Part shown: positions 1 through 22,588 of the stretch, piece by piece
Layout: every line of letters begins with the position of its first letter
Numbering within the stretch: the first letter of the stretch is position 1
IMG/VR virus record: IMGVR_UViG_3300037483_001819
Location: 1 to 37,474 of that record
DNA length: 37,474 bases
Strand: one strand, 5' to 3'
From: a virus
Taxonomy: Duplodnaviria; Caudoviricetes
Made by a program: the position numbers and the translations under genes
The notes under the pieces: model-generated
Database searches by the model: none
Seen by the model: only the letters and a program-made list of their open reading frames with translations
Told to the model about the DNA's origin: nothing

Positions 1-267
1 TCAGCCCTCAGCTCTGCGGCGAAGCAGTGTCTGCTCCACCACATCTGCAATGCCCTCAACGGCGTTATCGGCGGCATCCAGATAGGGCGGAATGACCTCG
101 CGCTGGACGCAGCCTGGCATATAGTTGCAGACCTTGAAATGATGGGTATCCGCAGCACAAAAACGCAGATAAGAGAGACAGCGAGAATAAATGAAGACGC
201 AGCAAGGGGAGACAACCCCCTGGCCCCCTTTTCTAAAGGGGAATTAAAAGAGGAGGTGAAAGTTTGA
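1..267 (+). CDS. Hypothetical phage protein, 5' truncated by window edge
   Basis: Frame 1 is open from base 1 to TGA 265-267, which overlaps the start of the next gene; not in ORF track. Confidence 0.55.
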   Translation, partial: SALSSAAKQCLLHHICNALNGVIGGIQIGRNDLALDAAWHIVADLEMMGIRSTKTQIRETARINEDAARGDNPLAPFSKGELKEEVKV

Positions 268-581
268 GCGAACAAGAACCAGGAGAAAAAAAGAGGGAGG
301 CGAAGACGGATTATTTTGTCGAGGCGCAGGAAAACCTCATGAGGGTCGTGGAGTTTTTGGCTACGGATGTGTTCAGGCCCTCGACAGTCAAGGACCTATG
401 TGATGCGCTGAGTATAAGTCAGAACAAGGTTGTCTGGGTGCTTTACAACCTCAGGCGGCGCGACTGGGCGGAGCAGGTCGGCGACTCATGGAGGCTTAGC
501 CCCCGGATCGTCAGGATCGCGGATAGTGTGAGGGCAGGGATTGGGCAGAACATTCAGAGATATCTTGTGGAGGTGAAGTGA
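264..581 (+). CDS. Winged HTH (IclR-like) DNA-binding protein
   Basis: TVKDLCDALSISQNKVVWVLYNLRRRDWAEQVGDSWRLSP HTH-wing pattern; GAGGAGG RBS; early position. Confidence 0.7.
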   Translation: MSEQEPGEKKREAKTDYFVEAQENLMRVVEFLATDVFRPSTVKDLCDALSISQNKVVWVLYNLRRRDWAEQVGDSWRLSPRIVRIADSVRAGIGQNIQRYLVEVK

Positions 582-736
582 TGGTTCACGCGAGAAGCAA
601 AGAGGATTTATTTGTAGCGCTGATAGATGAATCCGAAAGACTAATGAAAGAGGCTGAAATGAAGCGCACAGCAGCCCTTAGAGTGCTTATAAGGGCGATC
701 AGACTACTTAAGAAAGAGGGGAAAAATGGCAAATAA
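581..736 (+). CDS. Hypothetical protein (51 aa)
   Basis: Manual translation MVHARSKEDLF...GKNGK*; GGAGG RBS; fills the gap and overlaps both neighbours. Confidence 0.55.
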   Translation: MVHARSKEDLFVALIDESERLMKEAEMKRTAALRVLIRAIRLLKKEGKNGK

Positions 737-1586
737 GAAACAGGCACCAAAGCATCCATGCTCTGGATGCGAGAAAGAGAAAAAAGAGTGCAAAAGCTGC
801 GAAAACGCAGGGGCCAAGGCCCTACAGTTGGCGGACATAGACAGGATGCAAAGAGAAGTGAAGATCAATTTGCTTGAGGGCGATTTGCCTTATAACCGGG
901 ACGCCTACATCACCCAGGCAAGGTTTTTAGCAAAACAGACCGCAGAATCAATGCTTATGCTCGGGAAAATACTCCTCATGATCAAGGAAAAAGAGGGCCA
1001 TGGAAACTTCATGAGGATTGTAGAAGAAGAAATAAATATACCCTATAAAACGGCGCAACGCTTCATGAACGGGGCTTTAGCGTCAGAGCAGTTCCCGAGA
1101 ATAGATTTTTCCAAAATGGACAAATTGTCCAGTTTGTATGCCCTCCTGGGCGCGCCTGACGAAGACTTAAAAGAGCTTGAATCTACTGGAATTTTAGCGG
1201 GAAACACCATTGATGACCTCCAGCGCATGTCTGTCAAGGAGATGCGGAACCTCATTAAAGAACTCAAAGATGACAGGGAATCTATAGCCAAGGGCATCAA
1301 AAAAGAGTTTCAGGCCGAGATGAAGGCTTACCAAAAGGAAATCAAGCGTCTGAGTCCCTTTGACCCAGAGGGAACAAAGGAAGGGCTTGAACACCTGTCC
1401 GAACAGATGGATTCAATCGACTCTATGCTTAATGAGGCGGACACCCTTATGCGTAAATTTATCTTTGATGAACGGGTACTGGAACTGCCCGAGATACAGT
1501 CCAGAGTAGAAGCGGTGCAGGCGCGCATGCGTAGCCGCATCGAGAGCCTTATAGATAATTGGGACGCGTTTGTAAACCCGGCATGA
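726..1586 (+). CDS. DUF3102-like protein
   Basis: LGKILLMIKEKEGHGNF...TAQRFM motif; typical position directly upstream of the transposase in Mu-like phages. Confidence 0.75.
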   Translation: MANKKQAPKHPCSGCEKEKKECKSCENAGAKALQLADIDRMQREVKINLLEGDLPYNRDAYITQARFLAKQTAESMLMLGKILLMIKEKEGHGNFMRIVEEEINIPYKTAQRFMNGALASEQFPRIDFSKMDKLSSLYALLGAPDEDLKELESTGILAGNTIDDLQRMSVKEMRNLIKELKDDRESIAKGIKKEFQAEMKAYQKEIKRLSPFDPEGTKEGLEHLSEQMDSIDSMLNEADTLMRKFIFDERVLELPEIQSRVEAVQARMRSRIESLIDNWDAFVNPA

Positions 1587-3169
1587 TCGAACCGGCCCTT
1601 ATAGAGCAGATCAGGCGCGACCTCAATTCAGCGCCGTATACGATGCGCACGGCCATGGCCGGAGATTGGGCCAGAATGCTGGGTATCGTGCCTCAGACGC
1701 TCTATATGGAACTGCGCGGGGAGACAAACGGGCGTGGCCGCAAGGGCACTCCAAAACGGCCTGAATACCAGGAATGGACGCGGACCGTCTCTGCTATCAA
1801 AAAATCACCGCCTGAGGGAGCAGGCGAGATCAGCACTGACCAGGCTGTTGCCATGGGGGTGCAATGGGGCAAGCTTCCGAAAGAGGCGCTGGAAGTGCCG
1901 GTCGGGACTTTTGACCGCATTGCCCGCGACATGGGACTAAACAAGAAGCTTAGGAAGGTGAGCCGCTTTCAGGCGGAAAGGCCGAACCAGCTTCACCACT
2001 TTGACGCCTCAAGCTCGAAATTCCTCTATATCCACAGCAGGGTGTCAGAGGATGATTTTATTATTAAAATCCATCGACCAGGCAGCGGAGACTATAAGAA
2101 CAAACCCATCCCCTGTGACAGGCTCAGGCCGTGGTATTACGGCGTTGTGGATGACCACTCAGGGCGCATGCACGGGACGCTGGTTGCCGCTGCCGGTGAA
2201 AACTCACTGCACAGCATCCAGGCGGTCTGCAATGCCTGGGCAGTGATGGGCGTGCCGGACGCGCTCCTGGCCGACCAGGGCATGCTTAAAAAAGGACTTA
2301 TATCCAAGGACCTCATAGCACGGCTTAACGTCGAACTGCCTGAATCCATGCCTTACGCCAAAGAGGCCCACGGTAAGATCGAGCGCACCTGGAGGACAGG
2401 CTGGCAGAGATTTGAAAAGCCCTTTTATGCCGGGGATTGGAAAAAATTCACAATATTATTTTCTGAGCTTAAACAGCAGTTTGAAACGTACCTCGCCGAT
2501 GACTATAACCAACTCGCTCACAGGTTTGATAAGGGGATAACAAAGATGCAGGCATGGAGTCGTATAAACCTCTATGGCGGCATTGTGGAGATACCCGAAA
2601 ACGCGATAGCAACAGCGGCCAGACGCATCGAGAGAACAGTTGATCAGGACGGGACACTACAAATTGACGGACAGACCTATGAAGTTAAACACCTGCACAG
2701 CGCTAAGGTGGTCGTATTTATGGGCGTTGTTGACGGCAAGATCATTGTCCAGGACAAAGCAGACGGCAAAAAATATGAGGTGCGCGCCTTCAAACCCCTA
2801 AACGTAGGGGAATACAAGGGCCACTTAGATACACCGCATCAGAAACTGATTAAAGAATTTGCGCCACAGCTAACAGGTTCCGCCCCCATGCTCTACGCCG
2901 AGAAAAAGGAGGCCTCCGTAAAGGTCGCCTCCATGCCTATCCGCACAAAAGAGGAACGCGTCATAGAGGACCCCTTTGACGTGGACAGCTTCGCGGACAT
3001 CAACGAGGCAATGCGGGAATTCATGACATATCTGCCGGGGATATTTCTATCAACAGACGAAAGGAGGGAAGTGGAGGAAACAATCGGGACACATGGCTTA
3101 AGCAGGAGTTTTGTGGGGAACTTTGCCCTTGAGGTGAGGGCGAATTTATCAAAACGGGCGGCGATGTAA
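1583..3169 (+). CDS. Mu-like DDE transposase (MuA analogue)
   Basis: RFQAERPNQLHHFDAS, VVDDHSG, LADQG, AHGKIER catalytic-core motifs; C-terminal RTVDQDGTLQIDGQTY; ATG 1583 overlaps the upstream stop (ORF track start 1559). Confidence 0.9.
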   Translation: MIEPALIEQIRRDLNSAPYTMRTAMAGDWARMLGIVPQTLYMELRGETNGRGRKGTPKRPEYQEWTRTVSAIKKSPPEGAGEISTDQAVAMGVQWGKLPKEALEVPVGTFDRIARDMGLNKKLRKVSRFQAERPNQLHHFDASSSKFLYIHSRVSEDDFIIKIHRPGSGDYKNKPIPCDRLRPWYYGVVDDHSGRMHGTLVAAAGENSLHSIQAVCNAWAVMGVPDALLADQGMLKKGLISKDLIARLNVELPESMPYAKEAHGKIERTWRTGWQRFEKPFYAGDWKKFTILFSELKQQFETYLADDYNQLAHRFDKGITKMQAWSRINLYGGIVEIPENAIATAARRIERTVDQDGTLQIDGQTYEVKHLHSAKVVVFMGVVDGKIIVQDKADGKKYEVRAFKPLNVGEYKGHLDTPHQKLIKEFAPQLTGSAPMLYAEKKEASVKVASMPIRTKEERVIEDPFDVDSFADINEAMREFMTYLPGIFLSTDERREVEETIGTHGLSRSFVGNFALEVRANLSKRAAM

Positions 3170-3180
3170 ATTAACAAAAG

Positions 3181-3240
3181 CGTTCTTGGTTCTTGGTTCG
3201 TAGTTAACAAAGAACGAAGAACAAAGCACCAAGAACAACG
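3181..3240. repeat. Heptamer-periodic imperfect inverted repeat (GTTCTTG.../...CAAGAAC), family copy 1
   Basis: Intergenic; shares core TAGTTAACAAAGAAC with 21141-21203. Confidence 0.7.
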
Positions 3241-3246
3241 CAGGAG

Positions 3247-4671
3247 GTGAATGAAGTGAGCACAGCAGCAGCGAAAATTTACAGCATGCCTTACAGTCCA
3301 TTGATAGCACGGGACCTGCTTGCGCAATGCGGGATATCCCAGCCAGAGGCGGCAGCAGCCATAGGCTTTAACAAAGAGACAGTGCGGCTGGCAATCAACA
3401 GAGGTTATATCCCCAGGGCAAACGTCAGGCGGAACCTCAGGCAGCAGCTTGAGGCATTCCTTGGCACAAACACCACAGCAGCAGAATGGCTGCGCAGGCA
3501 CGGCCTGACAATGGCTGACATCTGGAGAAAAAGCAGCAACGAAGCAGCGAGCATTTATCCCATCAATCACGGTGAGAAGGTCTATCACAGCAGGCGGCAT
3601 GACCTGCAGGCAATACCCCGTGTCGGACGTGAACATAAAAAACTACAAAGACAACTCGGAAGGAGAAAGCAGATTATGGAAAACGGCTACGCAACATTGG
3701 CTGCCTATGGTTACAACGGCAGTCCATTTTCAGAGGTCCGCATACCAACAGCGGACGGCAGCACGCTCAGGCGTCTTTTTAAAATGGCAACTGAGGCAAA
3801 GGCGATGGTCTCTGTTATCGCGCCTTACGGGGCAGGAAAGACCACAGCGATCGAGACAGCGCTTGACGGCCTGCCCTGTCATCACATATGCCTCAATCTT
3901 GCAGACAAGGAAAACATGAAGGTCGCGGACATCGAACGTGCGCTGGTCCGCAGGCTCTCACAGGAGCCCATTGCGCGGGACCGCGACACAAGGGCCTTGC
4001 AGGTCAGCCGTGTCGTGGGTGAGGCAGGCAAGAGCAAGCCGGTTGTGCTGATCATCGAAGAGGCCCATGTAATGCACCATAGCACTCTCCGGGCGCTCAA
4101 GCGGATCCGCGAGTATGACTGGATGGGCCGCAGACCTCTGCTGGCGGTTGTACTGATCGGCCAGTTCGATAAATTAAAGACAGCCAACCTCGCTGAGTGC
4201 CACAGGGGAGTCAGAAGCGACACCTATAAACTGCAGGGTCTGGCGCCCTCAGAGGCGCGGCTTTATGTCAATGAGACAGTCGGCGAGTGCTTCGAACCCG
4301 AGGCTGTAAAGGCGCTTTCAGAGCTGCCAGACGCGCGGAATTTTCTTGATCTGCAGGAGGCGATCATCACCCTTATGCAGGCAGGCCTCAGCAGCGGGAC
4401 AAAAAAGGTGACTGTGCTCGATGTGTTTCAGGCTTATGGCGGAGGCATCAAACAACTCATGGACAAATACGATATTAAATTATCGCAGCTTGCGGAACTC
4501 ACAGGCGAGCATAACAGCACACTGAGCCTGGTCATCAACAACAAACCGCATACACTGAGTAAGGAAAAGGAAGTGGCGGTGAAGACCGCCATATCTGACG
4601 CGATCAAAACACTGACCCAGCAGCCAGGGCACAAATCGCATAAAGCTGCTGCTGATTTAAAGGTGGTGTAG
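3247..4671 (+). CDS. Transposition AAA+ ATPase (MuB/ExeA-like) with HTH-like terminal segments
   Basis: Walker A APYGAGKTT, Walker B LIIEEAH, VVLIGQ; follows the transposase. Confidence 0.85.
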   Translation: MNEVSTAAAKIYSMPYSPLIARDLLAQCGISQPEAAAAIGFNKETVRLAINRGYIPRANVRRNLRQQLEAFLGTNTTAAEWLRRHGLTMADIWRKSSNEAASIYPINHGEKVYHSRRHDLQAIPRVGREHKKLQRQLGRRKQIMENGYATLAAYGYNGSPFSEVRIPTADGSTLRRLFKMATEAKAMVSVIAPYGAGKTTAIETALDGLPCHHICLNLADKENMKVADIERALVRRLSQEPIARDRDTRALQVSRVVGEAGKSKPVVLIIEEAHVMHHSTLRALKRIREYDWMGRRPLLAVVLIGQFDKLKTANLAECHRGVRSDTYKLQGLAPSEARLYVNETVGECFEPEAVKALSELPDARNFLDLQEAIITLMQAGLSSGTKKVTVLDVFQAYGGGIKQLMDKYDIKLSQLAELTGEHNSTLSLVINNKPHTLSKEKEVAVKTAISDAIKTLTQQPGHKSHKAAADLKVV

Positions 4672-4673
4672 CC

Positions 4674-4862
4674 ATGGGAAAAAACGGATCAGGAAAAATC
4701 ACACTGAGGCAAAAAATGGGCGTGGTAAATCATGCCCCTGCAAAGGGCGGCGACATCAAATGCCCGGTGACTGGGTTGCCGATGGACGTATCAGTCTGCA
4801 CAGTCAACCAGCAAAGGTATCCGCAGGCGTGCAAGCAAAGCGGATGCGAGGAGGCGGCATGA
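4674..4862 (+). CDS. Small Cys-containing hypothetical protein
   Basis: 62 aa ORF tightly packed in the early operon. Confidence 0.55.
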   Translation: MGKNGSGKITLRQKMGVVNHAPAKGGDIKCPVTGLPMDVSVCTVNQQRYPQACKQSGCEEAA

Positions 4863-5167
4863 AAAAACAAACATTGACTCTGGTTACACGTCCATATCTT
4901 TGTACCCAGTGCGGCAAGCATGACGTAGTTGCCGGCGGCTATCACGTCAACATCGAGCATCTGCCTGGGATGATCACGCTCTATGCTGTTGAGCACGGGC
5001 AGATGTATGACGAGGCAAAATTCAGACACCATGTCTGCGGCAGGGCCTGCTGTGTGCTGGCGTGGAATGCCGCGATGGATGAGATGGAGAGGCCCCGGAC
5101 CGACCCCGGGACCTCTCCTGAGACGCACATTGTTAACCCCGCGTGGGAGGTGCAACATGCAGGATAG
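4859..5167 (+). CDS. Hypothetical protein with CxxC motifs
   Basis: GGAGG RBS before ATG 4859; CTQC...HVCGRAC. Confidence 0.6.
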   Translation: MKKQTLTLVTRPYLCTQCGKHDVVAGGYHVNIEHLPGMITLYAVEHGQMYDEAKFRHHVCGRACCVLAWNAAMDEMERPRTDPGTSPETHIVNPAWEVQHAG

Positions 5168-5264
5168 GATAACACATATTCTTACCTGCATCTGCACTGT
5201 AGTTGCCCTGTGGCTGCTTTACAGCATTGCCTTTGAAGGCTGGCTTATGATGGGAGGGAAGTGA
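5157..5264 (+). CDS. Small membrane peptide (35 aa)
   Basis: GGAGG RBS; MQDRITHILTCICTVVALWLLYSIAFEGWLMMGGK has one hydrophobic helix. Confidence 0.5.
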   Translation: MQDRITHILTCICTVVALWLLYSIAFEGWLMMGGK

Positions 5265-5629
5265 TGGCTACAGCGGTTGCAAGGCAGCAATTGGAGAATG
5301 AATTAAACGACGGGTTTAAGCGCCTGTGGGCAGGCAATGTCCGGGAATGCATCAACCCCGGCTGTGAGATCCCCACGCGCTCGGAAAGCGGGCAGTGCGC
5401 TGTCTGCACGGTTTTGCAGAGGGCGGAGGAAAGGGTCGCCAGAGGCGAGGTGCATTCTGAGGTATTGACCACAGCATGCTGCAACTGCAAGGAGCCGTTT
5501 TACAGGTTAGGAAAAGAACACACCTGCCCCTCCTGCCGCGTAGCCGCGCTTAAACGATCCGATTATTCCCCCGCGCGCGTAGAGCTTGAAAAAGAAAAGA
5601 TACTCAGGAGGGCGCATGCAGTCAACTAA
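5261..5629 (+). CDS. Zn-ribbon-like hypothetical protein
   Basis: Several CxxC pairs (CAVC, CCNC, CPSC). Confidence 0.6.
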   Translation: MMATAVARQQLENELNDGFKRLWAGNVRECINPGCEIPTRSESGQCAVCTVLQRAEERVARGEVHSEVLTTACCNCKEPFYRLGKEHTCPSCRVAALKRSDYSPARVELEKEKILRRAHAVN

Positions 5630-5810
5630 AACATTGAAAGAATTTATTAATGAACTCTGCAAAGAGCACGGGATAGATGTCGTGACCGAGGTGGTGAGGG
5701 AAAGGCTTGAGAAATACTTCAGGCTGCAGGAGCTGGGGCAGACTGCAAACAGGATGGGGTTGGTTTCACACATGAAGGAAAACGTAGAAATAAAAGGGAG
5801 GCAAAACTAA
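5616..5810 (+). CDS. Hypothetical protein
   Basis: AGGAGG RBS before ATG 5616; stop overlaps the gam start. Confidence 0.6.
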   Translation: MQSTKTLKEFINELCKEHGIDVVTEVVRERLEKYFRLQELGQTANRMGLVSHMKENVEIKGRQN

Positions 5811-6370
5811 TGGCAAGATTAAAACCGAAAAACACTATCACTTCAAAGGCACAGGCAGAGGCGGCAATGATGAAATTAAACAGCATCGATACTGAGCTGG
5901 CCCGGATGGACCTTGATGAGGCTGAGGCTATCTGCGCTGTCAGGGAAAAACACAACACAAAGCAGCGTGAGGCAGGTCGCCCTGGAATGGAGGCTGAAAA
6001 GGCCCTGCTGATAAAGGAGCTTGAGGCCTGGGCTGAAGGTGATCAGGCCACCTGGGGAAAGCGCAGCATCGAGACGCCCTTCGGGATGTTTGGCTTCCGA
6101 GTGGGCCAGCCGACTGTTTCGATTATTAAAAAGATTGCCAAGAGCTTTGACGCTGCCCTGGAGCTTTTAAAGGCCGCGCTGCCCGGATATGTGAGAGATG
6201 TGCCCCAGATAGACAAGGCTCAGATCCTCGCGGATAACGCTGCCAAAGTGCTGGACGAAGAGGCGCTCCGGGAGTGCGGCCTCGAGGTGAAACAGGATGA
6301 CGAGTTCTGGGTCGAGACAGCGGCAAGCAAAGACCTTGAGACGGCGGCGAAGAAATTGAGGGCGGCTTGA
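5810..6370 (+). CDS. gam: Mu Gam-like host-nuclease inhibitor
   Basis: Coiled N-terminus, KRSIETPFGMFGFRVGQP, IDKAQIL, GLEVKQDDEFWVE pattern. Confidence 0.85.
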   Translation: MARLKPKNTITSKAQAEAAMMKLNSIDTELARMDLDEAEAICAVREKHNTKQREAGRPGMEAEKALLIKELEAWAEGDQATWGKRSIETPFGMFGFRVGQPTVSIIKKIAKSFDAALELLKAALPGYVRDVPQIDKAQILADNAAKVLDEEALRECGLEVKQDDEFWVETAASKDLETAAKKLRAA

Positions 6371-6576
6371 AGACCGGCTGGATAAAAACAGAGTTGAAGA
6401 TCGGAAGGCCTAAATGGCATTTCTTTGATCGTAAAAAAATGCACGGGGCCAGAGAGGTGTCTTTATGCGGGCAGATCAGGCTGTATACAGTTACTGACCT
6501 GGAGACGCGACATATTATGGAGGCGGGTAACTGTCTGCTGTGTGTGAAGATTTTAAAGAAGATGGAGGTGGTATGA
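6367..6576 (+). CDS. Hypothetical protein
   Basis: 69 aa; KWHFF...SLCG...CLLC; overlaps both neighbours. Confidence 0.55.
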   Translation: MKTGWIKTELKIGRPKWHFFDRKKMHGAREVSLCGQIRLYTVTDLETRHIMEAGNCLLCVKILKKMEVV

Positions 6577-6809
6577 GCACAAAAAACAAATTGACCGATT
6601 TGAACAATCATTTATTTGCCCAGTTGGAACGGCTCTCCGATGAAGAGACAGTGGGCGACAAGCTTGCTGAGGAAATTGAAAGATCGCGGGCTGTGGGAGG
6701 AATCGCAAGGACCATTATCGACAATGCCAAGCTCGCACTGGAGGCTCAAAAGGCGTTAGATGACACGGTGCGCACGCTTCCGCCTGTGTTAAGCATCGGG
6801 GACAAATGA
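6573..6809 (+). CDS. Conserved phage hypothetical protein preceding the HNH gene
   Basis: KNKLTDLNNHLFAQLERL motif; GGAGG RBS. Confidence 0.7.
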   Translation: MSTKNKLTDLNNHLFAQLERLSDEETVGDKLAEEIERSRAVGGIARTIIDNAKLALEAQKALDDTVRTLPPVLSIGDK

Positions 6810-7426
6810 GACGTTATACAAAGGAGCATTTGGATTTTCTTTGCGCTCATTACCCGGAGATGTCGCGTTCCGAGCTGACAACATTATTTAATGCGCAATT
6901 CGCGGAGAACGTGACTGTGAAGGGACTGGTCTCCACAATTGAAAATCACAAGATCATCTCCGGTAGAACAGGGCAATTTGTAAAGGGGCAGGAGGCGTGG
7001 AACCTCGGAGTGAAGGGGTACATGGGGCCGAACAAAACCAGCTTCAAAAAGGGAAGTGTGCCGTCCAACAGAAAGCCGATCGGATCTGAAAGGATCTGCT
7101 CCAAGGACGGCTTTATCCTTGTAAAGATAAAAGAGCGTAATCCATATACGGGGTACCCGACCCGGTACAAGCACAAGCATGTCCACGTATGGGAGAAAAA
7201 ACACGGCACTGTGCCAAAGGGCCATGTTGTGGTATTTAAAGACGGGAACAAACTTAACTGCAAGCCGGGCAACCTGATGCTGCTGACCAGGGCTGAGCTG
7301 CTGGTCCTAAATCAGCACGGATACAAAGAGGCCCCAGCCGAATTAAAACCTACTATCCTTGCACTGGTAAAGCTGGAGACCAAGGCCGGGTTCAGATCGC
7401 GGCTAGTCAGGGGACGAAATGGCTGA
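6806..7426 (+). CDS. HNH endonuclease family protein
   Basis: KHVHVWEKKHGTVPKGHVVVFKDGNKLNCKPGNLMLLTRAEL; FKKG..P.N repeats. Confidence 0.85.
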   Translation: MRRYTKEHLDFLCAHYPEMSRSELTTLFNAQFAENVTVKGLVSTIENHKIISGRTGQFVKGQEAWNLGVKGYMGPNKTSFKKGSVPSNRKPIGSERICSKDGFILVKIKERNPYTGYPTRYKHKHVHVWEKKHGTVPKGHVVVFKDGNKLNCKPGNLMLLTRAELLVLNQHGYKEAPAELKPTILALVKLETKAGFRSRLVRGRNG

Positions 7427-7850
7427 GCAGATCAAAATTGATTTTAAAAATGTAGGGGCGCTGCTTGCCGCGCCCGGTATTAACGGCAACAGCCAGGGCG
7501 CGGCAAGCAGCGCCCCTACGGGAGACATGACGGACATCGAGACCCGCGTCCTCGCCCTCATTCAGCGGGGCCGCAGCAACGCCATCAGTATGCCTGCGCT
7601 GGCTGAGGCCTGCGGGATATCCACCAGAGAGTTGCAGTCGATTAAGAAACACCTGGTTGAAGACCACGGGGTTTTGATCGTCTCATCCTGCGGGAAAAAC
7701 AACGGATATTATTATCCGGAGAACGCCGAAGAATTCGACGCAGGAGCAGACCAGATAATTCATCGGATCATCTCCCTGGCGAAACTCCTCAGGGCGATGA
7801 ACAAAGAGAAATACGAGCACATATTCTGCCAGGGAAGGATTGAGCTATGA
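7419..7850 (+). CDS. Winged HTH domain protein
   Basis: GRSNAISMPALAEACGISTRELQSIKKHL...GYYY. Confidence 0.7.
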   Translation: MAEQIKIDFKNVGALLAAPGINGNSQGAASSAPTGDMTDIETRVLALIQRGRSNAISMPALAEACGISTRELQSIKKHLVEDHGVLIVSSCGKNNGYYYPENAEEFDAGADQIIHRIISLAKLLRAMNKEKYEHIFCQGRIEL

Positions 7851-8587
7851 TCAGTAAAATCCAGATCAAACTCATCAAGATCGGACAGAAGCAGATCGGT
7901 CTGAGCGATGAGCAATACCGCGACATGCTCTCTGACCGCTACTGGAAACACTCCTGCACAGAGCTGACGTATAAAGAGGCCTCTGACCTGATCGATCATT
8001 TTAAGACGCTGGGGTTTGCGGTAACTCCCCCATCCCCCTCTTATGTTAAGAGGGGGCAAGCAAAGCGCGGGGGCGTTACGAGATACGAATCCTCCATTGC
8101 CGGGCTGCGGCAGGAGATCGCAGACATTGCGCGTGAGAGGTTTGGCCGTGATTTCGAGTCCCCGCTCAATGCCCTGTGCAAAAAATTCAAGGTCGATCAC
8201 TGGAAATTTTTAAACGTGGCCACAGGCAAGGAGATCAAGGCTGCGTTGATAAGGATGCAACAAAGCGGACAGCCAAAAAACTCTTTACCACCCCGGCCTG
8301 CGGCCACCCCTCCTAAAATAGGCGGGGAGCTCATGACCAAACAGCAACTCAAAGAGATCGAGTTGCTCAAGGCTGATGTGCTCTGGAGCAGTGGGCCGAT
8401 GGGCTATTACAAATGGCTGAAGGCGTATTTAAAAAAGGACAGCATCTCAACATATAAGGAGGCGGAGGCGGTCAAGAAGGCGCTGAAGGGAATGCGGAAT
8501 GCGGAATGCGGAATGCGGAATGCGGAGACAGGGGAGAACTATTTCCGCCGTGATGGCGGGCTGTATGGAGGGCATTATGAATGGTAG
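7847..8587 (+). CDS. gemA: GemA/gp16 (DUF1018) family regulatory protein
   Basis: QIKLIKIGQKQIGLSDEQYRDML...SCTELTYKEASDLIDHFKTLGF N-terminal signature. Confidence 0.85.
   Translation: MISKIQIKLIKIGQKQIGLSDEQYRDMLSDRYWKHSCTELTYKEASDLIDHFKTLGFAVTPPSPSYVKRGQAKRGGVTRYESSIAGLRQEIADIARERFGRDFESPLNALCKKFKVDHWKFLNVATGKEIKAALIRMQQSGQPKNSLPPRPAATPPKIGGELMTKQQLKEIELLKADVLWSSGPMGYYKWLKAYLKKDSISTYKEAEAVKKALKGMRNAECGMRNAETGENYFRRDGGLYGGHYEW
8491..8525 (+). repeat. Tandem heptamer (AATGCGG)x5 inside the 3' end of gemA
   Basis: Five perfect copies read directly. Confidence 0.95.
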
Positions 8588-8774
8588 GAAGATAGACCCT
8601 GAATCACAAGCGATATGGGATGATCTGCGCAAAGCAGAACGATCACAAACATGCCCTCAATTATCCTGCTGCGATATGGTTCATGGCCTGATCAGGGCCG
8701 GCTATACGCGGATAATGGTAGATAACCTGAGCGTCACACTGAGGTTTTGTCCTCAGTGCGGCAGGAGGTTGTAG
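8577..8774 (+). CDS. Small Zn-ribbon protein
   Basis: GGAGG RBS; CC...FCPQCGRRL C-terminus. Confidence 0.65.
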   Translation: MNGRKIDPESQAIWDDLRKAERSQTCPQLSCCDMVHGLIRAGYTRIMVDNLSVTLRFCPQCGRRL

Positions 8775-8784
8775 GGAATTTAAT

Positions 8785-9150
8785 ATGAAAATTGACGACA
8801 AAATAAAGACACCGGGAGGGGTAGGAATTGTGGAAACTATTAATGATGTAAAAGCGATTGAAAGAGTTGAGAGTCTTCTTTCTCTTCTGAAGGTTGACGG
8901 CGATGCTATTTTTAAAATTATCGGATTGGTGCAGGACCACGCCGATTTCTTCAATGTGAGAATGGGCCATCGTTGCCTTCAGGCGGCAGCGACAAAGCTT
9001 GAGCAACTGGTCCGTGAGAATGTGGCCGATAAGCTGTACCCCGCTCGGGGATCAGCTTTATTGGCTTTGTTCGTCGGCGCGGAGCAGAGACGGACAAAGA
9101 CACAGCTTATCGGCCACATTCGCCGGACGCAATGGAAAAGTCTCTTTTAG
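8785..9150 (+). CDS. Hypothetical protein (C-terminal third runs through a palindrome)
   Basis: 121 aa ORF; last ~45 codons overlap the 9010-9128 inverted repeat. Confidence 0.55.
   Translation: MKIDDKIKTPGGVGIVETINDVKAIERVESLLSLLKVDGDAIFKIIGLVQDHADFFNVRMGHRCLQAAATKLEQLVRENVADKLYPARGSALLALFVGAEQRRTKTQLIGHIRRTQWKSLF
9010..9128. repeat. Branched palindrome with perfect 20-bp stem
   Basis: GAATGTGGCCGATAAGCTGT (9018-9037) is the exact reverse complement of 9102-9121; two internal hairpins. Confidence 0.85.
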
Positions 9151-9195
9151 TGAAACGGATATCTAATTTAAAAGGGCATTGGATTGGAGAAAATA

Positions 9196-9357
9196 ATGGA
9201 GAATAAAAGTCCTCAAGAATTAGCCGAAGCCCACTGGAAGTATATTGAAGACCTTTTAAAAGAACACGGCGAATCAGATGCCGTTATTTCTAAGATTGGA
9301 TTTCAAGTCGCCTCGATGAAATTGTTGTGTGAGGTGTTATATGGCTTTTTATATTAG
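9196..9357 (+). CDS. Small hypothetical protein (53 aa), reads through the attC half-site
   Basis: GGAG RBS; MENKSPQELAEAHWKYIEDLLKEHGESDAVISKIGF then continues into attC-derived sequence. Confidence 0.55.
   Translation: MENKSPQELAEAHWKYIEDLLKEHGESDAVISKIGFQVASMKLLCEVLYGFLY
9306..9330 (-). other. Truncated attC (R''/L'' arm only)
   Basis: Minus strand ACACAAC-AATTT-CATCGAG; matches the GTTGTGTG start of the same cassette; no partner arm found. Confidence 0.65.
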
Positions 9358-9508
9358 ACCTGAACGCATAGAGAAAATAATGGTGTGGCTGAGATGCCTC
9401 ATTTCTCATGATTGGGAATTTCGGGGTAATTTCTTTGTAGTAAGTGGCGGAGATAAGCCGTGGGGCCTGCATAAATGTAAACGATGTGGAAAGACGGCAG
9501 CATGGTAG
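9341..9508 (+). CDS. Cassette 5 (distal) ORF, 55 aa, C-x3-H...CxxC zinc-ribbon-like (DUF1660-like)
   Basis: Manual translation MAFYIRPERIEKIMVWLRCLISHDWEF...HKCKRCGKTAAW*; GAGGTG RBS. Confidence 0.7.
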   Translation: MAFYIRPERIEKIMVWLRCLISHDWEFRGNFFVVSGGDKPWGLHKCKRCGKTAAW

Positions 9509-9512
9509 TTAC

Positions 9513-9605
9513 ACACAACGCTCCGTTTAACCCGCGCGGAGTAAGACCTGAGACAGAAAAAACCGACGCGGTGAAGCTGCGTCGGTGTTGAAACGGTTGT
9601 TATAA
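9513..9605 (-). other. attC recombination site (93 bp)
   Basis: Minus strand TTATAAC-AACCG-TTTCAAC...GTTAAA-CGGAGC-GTTGTGT: 5/6-bp spacers and an extra base in L''. Confidence 0.9.
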
Positions 9606-9623
9606 AACCGACTTGGAGAACCT

Positions 9624-9800
9624 ATGAAAAAATGTGATTGTAGTTATCGTCGTTTTGTAGGGACTTATGGACATGACCGTTGCTACAAGGGGATGACATA
9701 TAAAATATTCCCTGACGGAGTGGTGGCTGAATATACAAAAAAATGCAGTTGGTTGAGGCGCTTGATTTGCGGAAAAGGCATTGATAAGCCGGTTTTATAA
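9624..9800 (+). CDS. Cassette 4 ORF, 58 aa Cys-rich hypothetical
   Basis: Manual translation MKKCDCSYRRFVG...GIDKPVL*; GGAG RBS; stop TAA inside the TAAC core. Confidence 0.7.
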   Translation: MKKCDCSYRRFVGTYGHDRCYKGMTYKIFPDGVVAEYTKKCSWLRRLICGKGIDKPVL

Positions 9801-9885
9801 CAACGCCGTCATGAGGGGCCGGGAATCCGATAATGGATTTTCAAACCTTAGCTATTCCCGGTCACTCTCGAAGCGGTTGTTACAC
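9795..9885 (-). other. attC recombination site (91 bp; irregular L'-R' spacer)
   Basis: Minus strand GTGTAAC-AACCG-CTTCGAG..CCGGGAAT...ATTCCCGG..CTCATG-ACGGCGTT-GTTATAA. Confidence 0.8.
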
Positions 9886-9917
9886 ATTTTTTCATCTTCT
9901 TTTATTAAGGAGGCACA

Positions 9918-10121
9918 ATGCCAGGAGTAGACCATAGATGCACAACACACCATTACGCCTGTGATTGCAGGGAGGCTGCTATAAAGTTTGTGGCCGAAAG
10001 ATTGCTTTCTGAACATGATGAACTTGCAAAATTCAAATCTGGATTTGGAAAGCCACGCCCATGCTTCTGTGCTGGCTGCCAAGAGGCGCGTAAGTTGATG
10101 GCGATTTCGGTAGATGTGTAA
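9918..10121 (+). CDS. Cassette 3 ORF, 67 aa Cys/His-rich hypothetical
   Basis: AAGGAGG RBS; CTTHHYACDCRE...CFCAGC; stop in TAAC core. Confidence 0.75.
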   Translation: MPGVDHRCTTHHYACDCREAAIKFVAERLLSEHDELAKFKSGFGKPRPCFCAGCQEARKLMAISVDV

Positions 10122-10203
10122 CGCCGTGCTCATTTGCCGGGGCACGAGCAAAACTAAAAACCGACCGGCGTTATTCGGGGTCGGCTGGGAGAAATTGTTA
10201 AAC
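10116..10203 (-). other. attC recombination site (88 bp)
   Basis: Minus strand GTTTAAC-AATTT-CTCCCAG...ATGAG-CACGGC-GTTACAC. Confidence 0.8.
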
Positions 10204-10230
10204 ATTTTCTATGCCTTGAAAGGAGGAAAA

Positions 10231-10509
10231 ATGTTCATTGAAGTAACAGATAAAATCAAGGATTCGTTGGAAGATCCATTGGATAGGATTTTCCGTAACG
10301 ATTACACCCCGGAGGGTATGTTTGAAAATGCTCAGTTCTTGAGGTATCGGCACAAAACTGGTACATGGGAAATTGAAATCAGGTCTGGTTTTTCTAAATT
10401 CAAGGTGATGCTTCAAGAATTTCAGGCTATGGCAATAATCAACAACGAGTTGGGGCATGACTTTACGCTTCAGGTCAGCAAATATGATAGAGATGCATTG
10501 TATGTTTAA
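10231..10509 (+). CDS. Cassette 2 ORF, 92 aa hypothetical
   Basis: AGGAGG RBS before ATG 10231 (ORF-track start 10114 would translate the attC); stop in TAAC core. Confidence 0.75.
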   Translation: MFIEVTDKIKDSLEDPLDRIFRNDYTPEGMFENAQFLRYRHKTGTWEIEIRSGFSKFKVMLQEFQAMAIINNELGHDFTLQVSKYDRDALYV

Positions 10510-10593
10510 CGTGCCGCGTGAGGCGCACGGGAACAGACGTGTGCTAAAAACAAACCAGCCTTCAACCGTGTCGCTTCGACGCGGTTGTTATGA
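10504..10593 (-). other. attC recombination site (90 bp)
   Basis: Minus strand TCATAAC-AACCG-CGTCGAA-GCGACACGG...CCGTGCGC-CTCACG-CGGCAC-GTTAAAC. Confidence 0.9.
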
Positions 10594-10608
10594 GGAGGTA
10601 TTAAATTT

Positions 10609-10842
10609 ATGGTTCAGGTAGTTGAAGAGCTTTATGAAATAAATATTGGTGGTGTTCCGGGTGATGAAGAAATGGGGCCGTCTTTTTTGATTAAGGCTTT
10701 CAAAGGCAAAAGAACTGAGAAATTCTATGGGCTGAAGATTATTCCCTCTGACGGCAGCAAGACACGGGAAATTTGGTTTAGCGATTTAAACCAGATAGCG
10801 AAACTGATAGAAAAAACGGGAGGCAAGACGGATGCCTCATAA
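10609..10842 (+). CDS. Cassette 1 (attI-proximal) ORF, 77 aa hypothetical
   Basis: GAGGAGG RBS overlapping the R'' box; stop TAA in the attI core. Confidence 0.75.
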   Translation: MVQVVEELYEINIGGVPGDEEMGPSFLIKAFKGKRTEKFYGLKIIPSDGSKTREIWFSDLNQIAKLIEKTGGKTDAS

Positions 10843-10865
10843 CAATTACTCTACGGAGAAAATGG
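10837..10865 (-). other. Putative attI site (crossover G|TT at 10843/10842)
   Basis: Minus strand ...CCGTAGAGTAATTG|TTATGAGG; GTTATGAGG complements R'' CCTCATAAC of the first attC; no hairpin; directly 5' of intI. Confidence 0.7.
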
Positions 10866-10891
10866 CTATGTATGAAATCTGGAGGTGATGC

Positions 10892-11917
10892 ATGAATACA
10901 GCGACAGCAAAGGTTTATTACCTCAATAAGAATAAATATCAGAAAAGCAATTGCCGACCAGAAGAGGAAGGGGCTTTTTGGAAGGGCATGCGGAATGAGA
11001 TCAGGCTGCGGCATTATAGCTACAGCACTGAAAAGACCTATGTTGACTGGTGTAAAAAGTTTGTCCTTTATTACAAGAAGAAGCACCCCCGTGACATGGG
11101 ATCGCAAGAGGTAAAGGACTATCTCACATACCTGGCGGTAAAGAGAAACCACGCCGCCTCGACGCAAAACCAGGCGTTTAATGCGCTGCTTTTTATGTAC
11201 CGGGAATACCTCAAAATAGAATTGACGGGGATAGATGCTGTCCGGGCGAAGAAGCCGAAGAAACTACCGGTGGTATTTACACATGATGAAGTGGATGCGG
11301 TTATGGACCATATGCGAGGGACGTATTGGATCATGTTCGCGTATATGTATGGCGCAGGGCTCAGGCTGATGGAGTGCTGCCGCTTAAGGGTTAAGGATAT
11401 TGATTTTGGGATGAAAAACATAACTGTCCGCGACGGCAAGGGTGGTAAGGACAGAACAGTGCCGCTGCCTGAGACCTCCATCGACAGAACCAAGCGGCAC
11501 CTGGAAAAAGTAAAAGCTGCACATGAAAAAGATTTACGCGAGGGCTACGGTACGGTCGAAATGCCCTTTGCGCTCGATCGGAAATATCCAAACGCAAAGA
11601 GGGAGTGGGGATGGCAATACGTCTTCCCCGCTGAATTCAGATCACGCGATCCACGCAGCGGCATTGTCCGGAGGCATCACCTCCATGAATCGGCAGTCCA
11701 GAAAATGGTCCATTCCGCAATCTTGAAGGCGAGGATTGTTAAACAGGCATCATGCCATACCCTTCGTCACAGCTTTGCCACTCATCTCCTTATGGCAGGC
11801 ACGGATATCCGCACAATACAAACACTAATGGGGCATAAAAACATAGAGACAACCATGATATATTTGCACGTGATAGGACAGGGCGCAGCAGTCAAAAGCC
11901 CTATGGATATGAGATGA
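10892..11917 (+). CDS. intI: Integron integrase (tyrosine recombinase)
   Basis: [45 protein letters not shown], IntI-specific insertion [21 protein letters not shown]...[30 protein letters not shown]; catalytic R-K-H-R-H-Y intact. Confidence 0.96.
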
Positions 11918-12228
11918 ACTGGCTTGACAACATACGGCGTGAGGACCTGCATGAAAGTTATCAGGAGCTGATGGATGTTATGACTGGCGTCATCGGAGAT
12001 GCGCTAAGCATTGAGCTGATTATGAAATTGTCGTGCCACTACAAGGGCCAGTTTTATTTCCGCAGCCTGCAGGACATGATTTCCGACCGCAAGAAGAAAT
12101 TTATTATCGCTAATTTTAACGGTGACAACCATGAAGAGCTGGCGCGCAAGACAAACTGGTCGCTGCGCTATATCTACGATATTCTCGCCGAAGACCGCAA
12201 TAAATCTCAGCTCTCTTTTTTGAACTAG
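11914..12228 (+). CDS. mor: Mor/C family transcription activator
   Basis: [25 protein letters not shown]-terminal HTH, QLSF tail; sits just before the lysis/late genes. Confidence 0.88.
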
Positions 12229-12235
12229 TTCAAAA
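12218..12235. promoter_or_regulatory. Perfect 18-bp palindrome TTTTGAACTAGTTCAAAA; candidate late-activator binding site
   Basis: Dyad spans the mor stop codon at the start of the early/late intergenic region; function inferred from position. Confidence 0.5.
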
Positions 12236-12384
12236 GACGCCTTCCCTTCTGCTCCGATAAAATCGGAGCATGCGTAACAAATCCATTGAGTTTTCCCCAT
12301 TAAAGCTGCAGGTTGTTTCACCCCCTGGGGGCGTCGGGCTTCACCTCCCTCAGCGCCCCTGCCTCACCCTCCCTTGCAGTGGCA

Positions 12385-12419
12385 ACAACCCCCTTGATCC
12401 CCCTTTGCTAAGGGGGAAT
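12385..12419. repeat. REP-like element ACAACCCCCT..CCCCCTTT.CTAA.GGGGAAT (second copy at 212-244)
   Basis: Two near-identical dispersed hairpin copies. Confidence 0.75.
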
Positions 12420-12421
12420 AT

Positions 12422-12868
12422 TTGATGCCTAAGGAAATCTTTGAAAAGTTATCAGACCTCGAACTCATCACTCTCTGCGTCTATGGCGAGGCGCGCAATC
12501 AGGGGCTTGACGGTATGCTGGGAGTGGCCTCGGTAATTGTCAACCGCGCGAAGCATCCCTCCTGGTGGGGCAGTGACATAAAGACCGTGGTGCTTAAGCC
12601 CAAACAGTTTTCCTGCCTTAATGAAAACGATCCCAACGTCTCGATTCTCAGGCAGATAGCAGAGGACTTCTCCGGCAGCCTTTCAAAACTCGGCGTGCTG
12701 AGGTTATGCCACTGGATATGCAGGGGCCTGCTTGAGGGCATGCTCTACAGCAACGTCGGCAGCGCAACGCACTACCACACTGTAAACTGCGATCCTGAGT
12801 GGGACGATAACATGCGACTGATTAAAAAAATCAACCAGCATGTGTTTTTTGAGGTGAAAAAGAAATGA
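12422..12868 (+). CDS. Endolysin, SleB/Hydrolase_2 cell wall hydrolase
   Basis: YGEARNQG, VASVIVNR, PKQFSCLN, ATHYH, INQHVFF. Confidence 0.9.
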   Translation: MMPKEIFEKLSDLELITLCVYGEARNQGLDGMLGVASVIVNRAKHPSWWGSDIKTVVLKPKQFSCLNENDPNVSILRQIAEDFSGSLSKLGVLRLCHWICRGLLEGMLYSNVGSATHYHTVNCDPEWDDNMRLIKKINQHVFFEVKKK

Positions 12869-21229: not shown

Positions 21230-22588
21230 ATGATTAAAAGAGTTTTTAGCATGGGCATTATCTTAGTGATGATCGCCTGTATGTTTTGCGTAGTAAACCC
21301 GCAGGCGTCCTATGCCGCGCTGACAGCGGAGAGGGACACGGCATCAAGGGCAGGACAGACTTTTGAACTGGGAGTCGCCGCCTCTGTCGAAATTTACAAA
21401 GGCGCTCTGGTCGCGGTTGATGCCAGCGGTTATGCCACTCCGGGGGCAACTGCTACTACCATCGTAGGACTCGGCAGGGCTGAGGAGACCAAGGACAATA
21501 CCACAGGCTCTAACGGGGATTTAAACGTCAGGATCAGCAGAGGCATATTCAGATATGCCAACTCTGCAGACGCGGACTTGATCGCAAATGACGACATCGG
21601 CAAACTCTGCTACATAGTGGACGACGCCACTGTGGCCTTAACTAACGGCAGCGACACCCGGTCACCTGCAGGCAGGATCTTCGGGGTTGATAGTTCAGGC
21701 GTATGGGTGGAGTTTCTACACTTCAGCGCGCCGGGCACTGTGGTGTCAGCGGACATTGTTGATGGGACCATTGTAACTGCCGACATAGCGGATGATCAGG
21801 TGACAAGCGCCAAGCTGGCAAACGATCTCACTTTCGGATCAGCCATTACCGATGAGATTACTGTCACGGGGGCCTTGCAAGGAGCGATTGCGTTTTATCT
21901 CGATGGCGCAACAGACAACGCCTTTGAACTGGGGATCGGGGCGCTTGACGATCCTCTGGCAGACAAGACAGTCAAAATACCTTCCAAAACTGACGCAACA
22001 TTAATGATTTCAAGCCTTGTGACCAATGACATTGATGTTGCCAATAGCGTATGGGGAGTATCCAACGGCTTTGCCTTCGGAGGAGCAACGGGCGGAGATG
22101 GGTTTGAAGTTACCGTCAGCCCCTCGGCTGATCCGGGCGCGGACGTGGCAATAGGCTTGCCTGCGGCCAGCGGAACTTTGGCAAATACTGCGGGAGCCGG
22201 ATCAAATAAAACCGTGGTAGCAGGCTCCGGCGCAAATACGGTCGCAGCTACCGACTGCGGCAAGGTCTTCACTGCTGCGGCTGATGCTGATGGAGTATTT
22301 AATCTCCCGGCAACAGTGGCAGGCTGTGAGCTGACATTTATTAACATCGGGGCAGACACCAATAACCTGCTGACCGTCAACCCGGACGATGCGGATAAAA
22401 TATTTTGCGTTGGCCTCAGCGCTGCAGCTGATACCCAGGGCGTTGATATCGAGGGATCTGATGGTGATGCCATATCAAACACCAAAGGCACTGCGGAGCG
22501 TGGTGATCAGGTGACGCTTATCGGCGATGGCGCGGACGGCTGGTACTGTAAGGGTTTTGCTGTGGGCATATGGGCTGATATTAATTAA
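21230..22588 (+). CDS. Putative capsid decoration/cement protein with N-terminal signal peptide and long C-terminal extension
   Basis: AGGAGG RBS at 21230; ALTAERDT...VAASVEIYKGALV..DASGYA...DIGKLCYIVDD..V...AGRIFGVDSSGVWV domain; lies between protease and major capsid genes. Confidence 0.75.
   Translation: MIKRVFSMGIILVMIACMFCVVNPQASYAALTAERDTASRAGQTFELGVAASVEIYKGALVAVDASGYATPGATATTIVGLGRAEETKDNTTGSNGDLNVRISRGIFRYANSADADLIANDDIGKLCYIVDDATVALTNGSDTRSPAGRIFGVDSSGVWVEFLHFSAPGTVVSADIVDGTIVTADIADDQVTSAKLANDLTFGSAITDEITVTGALQGAIAFYLDGATDNAFELGIGALDDPLADKTVKIPSKTDATLMISSLVTNDIDVANSVWGVSNGFAFGGATGGDGFEVTVSPSADPGADVAIGLPAASGTLANTAGAGSNKTVVAGSGANTVAATDCGKVFTAAADADGVFNLPATVAGCELTFINIGADTNNLLTVNPDDADKIFCVGLSAAADTQGVDIEGSDGDAISNTKGTAERGDQVTLIGDGADGWYCKGFAVGIWADIN

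Follow-up and report, generated by a model that had tools for sequence, protein, structure and literature searches.

Integrons are bacterial devices in which cassette genes are oriented with their attC recombination sites so that the cassette promoter (Pc) can read them, and those of phages have so far been described as rare captures from hosts. The locus examined here raises the question of whether a phage can run an integron whose cassette genes point the other way. It lies in a single contig of 37,474 nucleotides (nt) from a Mu-like phage (IMGVR_UViG_3300037483_001819; hereafter the window), which begins and terminates inside the phage. The interval between gemA and the gene of a Mor-family activator (mor) is occupied there by small open reading frames (ORFs) and a recombinase of 341 amino acids (aa). 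An initial annotation, made from the sequence alone, had proposed that five of these ORFs are cassette genes inverted relative to their attC sites, forming a mirror-image class. This proposal is now supported by tests of site polarity, natural insertion pairs, and a survey of phage and nonviral loci. The element is a real integron, with a cassette system of phage type and mirror orientation that resides here in a transposable phage, and we regard the inversion of its cassette ORFs relative to attC as practically certain.

Polarity of the attC sites and of the cassette genes

Four attC sites were recognized in the window, all on the minus strand: attC A (9513-9605; 5/6 spacers; C16, A20, and A24; scan score of 19), attC B (9798-9885; C16, A20, and A24; 18.5), attC C (10116-10203; 5/6 spacers; C16 and A23), which is degenerate or hybrid, and attC D (10504-10593; 5/6 spacers; C16 and A23; 17.5). 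The array ends in a half attC on the same strand (9307-9330), made of R'', a spacer, L'', and GAC, for which no convincing L'/R' partner was found (best full-site score of 11.5 against a threshold of 15.5). At the opposite end, intI (10892..11917, plus strand) encodes an intact 341-aa integron integrase (TIGR02249, 426 bits against a cutoff of 265) in which the catalytic residues R158, K183, H289, R292, H315, and Y324 are invariant in the alignment. Between the last cassette and intI, which is where attI is expected, stands a putative attI on the minus strand (10836..10860), 49 nt from the intI start, with its crossover G|TT at 10843|10842 and a core, G|TTATGAG, that is a 9-bp complement of the R'' box of attC D.

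When the sites are read on the minus strand, C occupies top position 16 in all four, accompanied by A20 and A24 in A and B and by A23 in C and D. They complement the bottom-strand bulges (G16/T20/T24 or G16/T23) described in PMC5027507, which places the attC top strand on minus. The spacer asymmetry on which the initial annotation had relied holds for A, C, and D but fails for B, where the second spacer measures 5 or 8 nt (5/5 or 5/8). Where cassette A meets attC B (9799-9804), an additional AAC leaves the site with two possible R' registers, at 9804 or 9801. A polarity-aware scan, in which attC is scored in the top-strand orientation only, assigned 29/29 sites of four annotated records to the strand that carries the majority of the cassette genes in those records, put sites A, B, and D of the window on minus, and called no attC in 300 resampled 1.6-kb sequences of the region. 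One further scan match at 21636-21764 (score of 15.5) is attributed to chance, as it falls within a structural gene and has no model match. The covariance model was built from 14 canonical sites, none chosen with a window-derived pattern (alignment A4); alignment A1 of control attC sites was too poor for a model, and A3, some rows of which came from the window-derived pattern, was dropped. On minus, the model matched A (33.6 bits, E = 7.6e-6) and D (28.5 bits, E = 1.3e-4), and no window site was matched on plus. When both strands were folded, plus gave the more stable structure in all four sites, as a minus top strand predicts, given that bottom strands of attC fold more stably on average (PMC5027507, available text). 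Bulge positions, folding bias, and covariance model thus agree on the strand, the last at significance for two of the four sites. In attC A (9558-9590) and attC C (10158-10185), an internal hairpin is followed by a minus-strand T run; these hairpins are competitors of the recombinogenic fold and might act as terminators on the minus strand, and a terminator scan did not report them.

The five cassette ORFs all lie on the plus strand, each contained entirely in its predicted cassette, and none (0/5) is on the attC top strand. They comprise the distal ORF (9341..9508, 55 aa), ORF A (9624..9800, 58 aa), ORF B (9918..10121, 67 aa), which belongs to a phage early-gene family and carries a THHYACDCRE motif, ORF C (10231..10509, 92 aa), and the attI-proximal and likely newest ORF D (10609..10842, 77 aa). 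The initial annotation had all five inverted with their stop codons in the crossover core. Inversion applies to every one and the stop position to four: at 9798-9800, 10119-10121, 10507-10509, and 10840-10842, the codon is TAA with a C directly after it, which complements the crossover core; the distal ORF stops 10 nt before the core, at a TAG. The start of the fourth ORF is most likely 10231, preceded by the ribosome-binding site (RBS) GGAGG, rather than 10114. The two RBS motifs that the initial annotation named are present, and plus does carry the good ones, with runs of 4 to 6 bases for the five ORFs versus 1 to 3 for longer minus-strand ORFs (60, 86, and 117 aa). Homology further supports plus as the coding strand of B, through 14 viral relatives, and of A, through two relatives aligned at full length (55% and 51% identity); for C and D, the assignment is based on RBS and length. 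As for function, no cassette ORF had a match in PHROGs, NCBIfam, or Pfam, and homologue searches returned only the proteins themselves (for ORF C, itself only); Atlas matches all lay under their own bars, and, among viral sequences, ORF A and the distal ORF had weak or motif-level matches only. Beyond the array, a phage-type ORF (9196..9357, plus) runs into the half attC and appears truncated there; the alignment with its one viral relative is confined to residues 3-25.

Could the strand call be wrong, with plus as the top strand and the cassettes ordinary ones beside a co-oriented integrase? Either polarity is compatible with the end-to-end inverted repeats of the cassettes, intI does run with the ORFs, and integrons with an inverted integrase are known (PMC4889954, available text). 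Against this, bulges, spacers, folding bias, and covariance model all indicate minus, so that intI (plus) and attC (minus) are not co-oriented as they are in those integrons, and the unit that moves (see below) is a left attC with its ORF rather than the predicted ORF with a right attC. We therefore consider this explanation very improbable and largely refuted.

Cassettes as moving units

If the ORFs are carried in mirror orientation, the unit that moves should pair each ORF with the attC to its left. Cassette A, composed of attC A and the inverted ORF (9519..9800, minus), was found in precisely this form in sequencing reads. Run X1 yielded a 286-nt unitig located exactly at 9516-9801 (depth of 31.8), whose left neighbors are the window's own sequence (19.5) and another contig of 3368 nt (11.4), and whose right neighbor of 1482 nt (13.4) starts with a different attC arm. 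The foreign left flank recurred in X2 and in a soil run from a different study, X4, so that the unit occurs unchanged and 100% identical between other neighbors in three runs. This read-derived unitig also shows that the attC B boundary used in nature is 9801|9800. Run X3, from an independent study, covers 9449-9706, 10445-10606, and 10835-10985 with zero differences; it bridges attC A, covers attC D, and links the attI end to intI, which means that these junctions are not assembly errors. Runs X5 to X7 yielded no matching pieces, and the uncovered parts in X1, X2, and X4 carry no information. X4 additionally holds pieces identical to 11752-12293 (the end of intI with mor) and to 9516-9608, the latter being cassette A with its foreign left flank; they possibly derive from a variant of the window phage with another array.

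Pairs of related phages gave a second view of the same process. In L013, compared with the near-identical L012, a 337-nt insertion at the attI-equivalent place consists of a minus-strand attC followed by a plus-strand ORF, and a second, distal insertion carries an attC reduced to two cores; both were cut at AA|C. A reciprocal difference of two cassettes, likewise cut at AA|C, distinguishes L077 from L078. Breakpoints thus fall at the AA|C core and outside the hairpins. Movement of cassettes as units at the G|TT crossover is therefore seen for cassette A, in two contexts, and in these indel pairs from other phages than that of the window, as is insertion beside attI, observed in L012/L013. The moved unit, a left attC with the right-hand ORF, fits minus polarity, as plus polarity would predict an ORF with the right attC. 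The attC reduced to two cores, 6 nt apart, lies at 6510-6530 of L013 and is lacking in L012.

Not all observations favor an active array, and those that weigh against it are the following. The covariance model recovered the exact ends of B (6.8 bits) and C (3.3 bits) on minus, but below significance; attC C pairs badly in its L boxes; and for A and C the fold of lowest energy is not the recombinogenic one. For these reasons, part of the window array may move slowly or no longer at all. In the seven runs mapped (X1 twice), no excision joint of that array was found, and X1 and X2 may be source samples of the window. One might accordingly propose a relic, once mobile and now changed by homologous recombination between phages at attC hairpins rather than by IntI, in keeping with the degenerate site C, the odd register of B, the half site at the far end, and the missing excision joint. 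On the other hand, IntI has its full length and lacks none of the catalytic residues, the breakpoints lie at the AA|C core rather than within hairpins, and the two contexts of cassette A hold 100% identical copies, and we judge a relic to be quite unlikely.

Phage and nonviral integrase loci compared

To place the window among other integrons, the orientation of cassettes was surveyed in 90 viral integrase loci, 80 metagenome loci, 47 genome loci retrieved with an attC pattern, and 4 annotated controls. The integrase searches kept the best 80 of 582 viral and the best 80 of 588 metagenome matches, and the viral set omits the window's twin contig (L001), nine distant recombinases (L021-L029), and eight duplicates. 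Sites were the union of scan and model matches, or scan matches alone for genome and control loci, and each distinct cassette between two sites was counted. An attC was detected in 55/90 viral loci. In viral loci with attC on minus, 72 of 90 cassettes from 34 loci were inverted, 2 were canonical, and 16 were unclear; on inspection, both canonical calls hold a plus-strand ORF, one of which ends at the crossover TAA. Among 38 cassettes of metagenome loci with that layout, 28 were canonical, 4 inverted, and 6 unclear; the counts in the same order were 11, 1, and 4 of 16 for genome loci and 18, 0, and 5 of 23 for annotated controls. Loci scored by their majority contrasted 26:0 with 0:19 (Fisher P = 4e-13, a value that is overstated because the loci are related). 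The inverted layout is thus the norm for phage integrons with the array 5' of intI. A first-pass survey (viral loci, 32 inverted, 9 canonical, and 3 unclear) was replaced because missed sites had merged cassettes.

The stop position varied more than the orientation. Of the ORFs in 76 inverted viral cassettes, 30 have the crossover TAA as their stop, 28 continue into the following attC, and 18 terminate before the crossover; a stop in the core is frequent, not defining. In viral loci with the array 3' of intI, 7 of 9 cassettes were canonical and 2 were unclear, so that cassette genes and intI share one direction in either phage layout. Examples of this second layout are L010 (8107-11876), L058 (7111-10076), and L044 (8386-8746), where canonical cassettes are codirectional with the phage genes. 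Inverted cassettes also occur in phage loci that were fetched without an integrase reference (L248, 2982-3848; L260, 4152-5172; L262, 2877-3230).

The survey has its counterexamples as well. No attC was detected in 35/90 viral integrase loci, the metagenome cassettes 3' of intI were called inverted in 2 of 3 cases, strand calls were automated over related loci, and the nonviral total of 54 cassettes includes 5 inverted ones next to 39 canonical. In several of the viral loci without a detected attC nearby (L002, L005 to L007, L017, L050, and others), an intact-looking intI sits in a run of phage genes.

The five inverted nonviral calls bear on where the cassettes come from, as a phage with a captured host integron might retain just the rare host cassettes whose inversion suits the direction of its operon, and so share its pool with the host. 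The half-site of attC B does resemble chromosomal attC sites of Nitrospirota genomes (L212, L239, and L236; 94% and 91% over 33 nt), and inverted arrays are scattered over at least four integrase clades of a 162-tip tree with weak deep support. The Nitrospirota loci were found with a window-derived pattern and give a weak hint of the host; in L212 and L239, the two with a full attC site, the cassette genes are canonical. The gene content points elsewhere. In arrays of other phages, 15/31 plus-strand cassette ORFs matched PHROGs, compared with 0/8 minus-strand alternatives, the matched genes being exonucleases, DNA methylases, a Mom-like protein, a DHH phosphoesterase, and unknowns. The ORF B family occurs as an ordinary packed gene in the phage operons of other viral contigs, where none of its 14 relatives is flanked by attC (in one, L248, an array lies 1.2 kb away). 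An attC pattern search in viral contigs gave three chance matches, in structural or unrelated genes. To judge from these sequences, the cassette genes appear to be drawn from the phage accessory pool. The window IntI itself belongs to a 10-tip all-viral subclade (support of 0.88), nested in a 43-tip clade with 41 viral tips (0.83), and shares in kind an N-terminal extension (window 10892-10985) with the neighboring phage integrases L003 and L045. Overall, a pool shared with the host strikes us as unlikely, and phages likely run a gene-swapping pool of their own, which would be read from the phage's own promoter, because the mirror layout recurs in so many other phage integrons.

Proposed mechanism and phage context

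Taken as a whole, the mechanism that we consider probable is that of a complete integron in the gemA-mor accessory slot of a Mu-like phage, with genes on the attC bottom strand. The phage assignment follows from PHROGs and Pfam matches, all on plus, to a transposase, a transposition ATPase, Gam, GemA, a Mor-family activator, an endolysin, a terminase, a portal, and head (including Mu-type) and tail genes. The early region with transposase, transposition ATPase, Gam, and GemA (1559..8587, plus; gemA, 7847-8587) lies upstream of the array, and mor (11914..12228, plus; PF08765, phrog_532) follows intI immediately. No Mor-gene relative was found beyond the twin contig and no cultured phage matches the array, so that neither an empty nor a differently filled slot came to light among relatives. 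Rfam gave no family-level match in 8500-12500.

Because IntI, attI, and attC keep their usual geometry, recombination of the bottom (plus) strand would insert cassettes beside intI. IntI would cut the folded plus strand of attC and join it to attI at 10843|10842, so that the integrase likely inserts and removes cassettes by the normal route; the chemistry need not be new, the cargo being mirrored. From the gene order, a new cassette would land beside intI, farthest from the early promoter. Each ORF would finish at or close to the six bases of the cassette that adjoin the crossover, and its stop codon and RBS would thus move together with the cassette. From 264 to 12228, every gene lies on plus and no gap exceeds 180 nt, and the simplest reading is therefore a single phage-driven transcript through the array, intI, and mor. 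Since the intI stop overlaps the mor start, the integrase is likely made during lytic growth. A Pc would be unnecessary, and the 49 nt before intI show none. Placed behind a host Pc, inverted cassettes would be antisense and hence silent in a host integron.

The promoter scans were less conclusive. The phage promoter was not located, with three weak plus-strand matches against 7.1 expected by chance in a crude scan, which speaks against the proposed transcript. A similarly crude scan found no sigma-70 match on minus in 8500-12500, and no proteobacterial LexA box was found before intI.

Comparison with canonical bacterial integrons, both class 1 and sedentary chromosomal, shows what the window shares and where it departs. 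Common to both are an integrase fitting the IntI model, an attI (putative in the window) at the intI 5' end, complementary cassette ends, attC bottom-strand G16 with T20/T24 or T23, and an intI pointing away from attC polarity. The window differs in having its ORFs on the attC bottom strand, running with intI, in stops that often lie in the crossover core rather than in R'', and in a phage operon of phage-type genes with no apparent Pc or separate integrase promoter. Phage Mu and its relatives have variable small accessory genes, all on one strand, in a semi-essential early region between the transposition genes and the Mor-family activator; the window differs from this arrangement in that recombination sites delimit its variable genes and a recombinase is dedicated to them.

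Integrons and clusters of attC sites lacking integron integrases (CALINs) have been described in phage genomes, and phage attC sites recombine with IntI1 via the bottom strand (Qi et al. 2023, PMC9892861). In the passages of that study covered here, the complete phage integrons are host derived (three of them, L031-L033, were canonical here), and neither ORFs inverted relative to attC nor an integron within a Mu-like early region is reported, though its supplements may show strands. Inverted-integrase integrons, from Treponema and others, resemble the window in that intI and cassette genes are codirectional, according to the available text of PMC4889954. There, intI is flipped relative to attC and the cassettes are normal, whereas in the window intI and attC are normal and the ORFs are flipped; the phage loci L010, L044, and L058 have the inverted-integrase layout. 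In the literature within scope, which consisted of freely available text, both phage integrons and inverted-integrase integrons were found, and no phage cassettes with ORFs opposite attC.

The window therefore presents an integrase wired into a phage operon and handling phage genes in mirror polarity, as in most phage integrase loci examined, and offers a sequence-encoded mechanism for the turnover of phage accessory genes. The strand of the ORF relative to that of attC provides a simple signature separating phage from host cassettes, and families existing both as plain phage genes and as cassettes give a handle on how cassettes are made. IntI1 inserts cassettes at genomic GWT sites, according to the available part of a preprint (10.1101/2022.09.11.507474). 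A gene end of the form TAA-C is a GWT site on the other strand and could, by analogy, seed inverted polarity; such seeding does not account for the 8 to 12 bp of matching cassette ends, which is why we rate it low. A broader and rather doubtful extension is that of a phage integron economy, in which early genes would become cassettes via TAA-C (GTTA) and mirror cassettes would circulate among phages while staying silent in hosts. If this were true, phage integrons would be a visible site of cassette genesis.

Three repeats near the array were also noted. A perfect 20-nt inverted repeat with a 64-nt loop (9018-9121) lies just past the array, inside the ORF at 8785-9150, and was not called as attC, as it is without properly spaced R boxes. 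A perfect 24-nt inverted repeat (7452-7519), in frame within the ORF at 7419-7850, resembles a repetitive extragenic palindromic (REP)-type element. Finally, a 7-nt unit is repeated five times in tandem at 8489-8523, where gemA and the next ORF overlap, and a change in its copy number could shift the frame.
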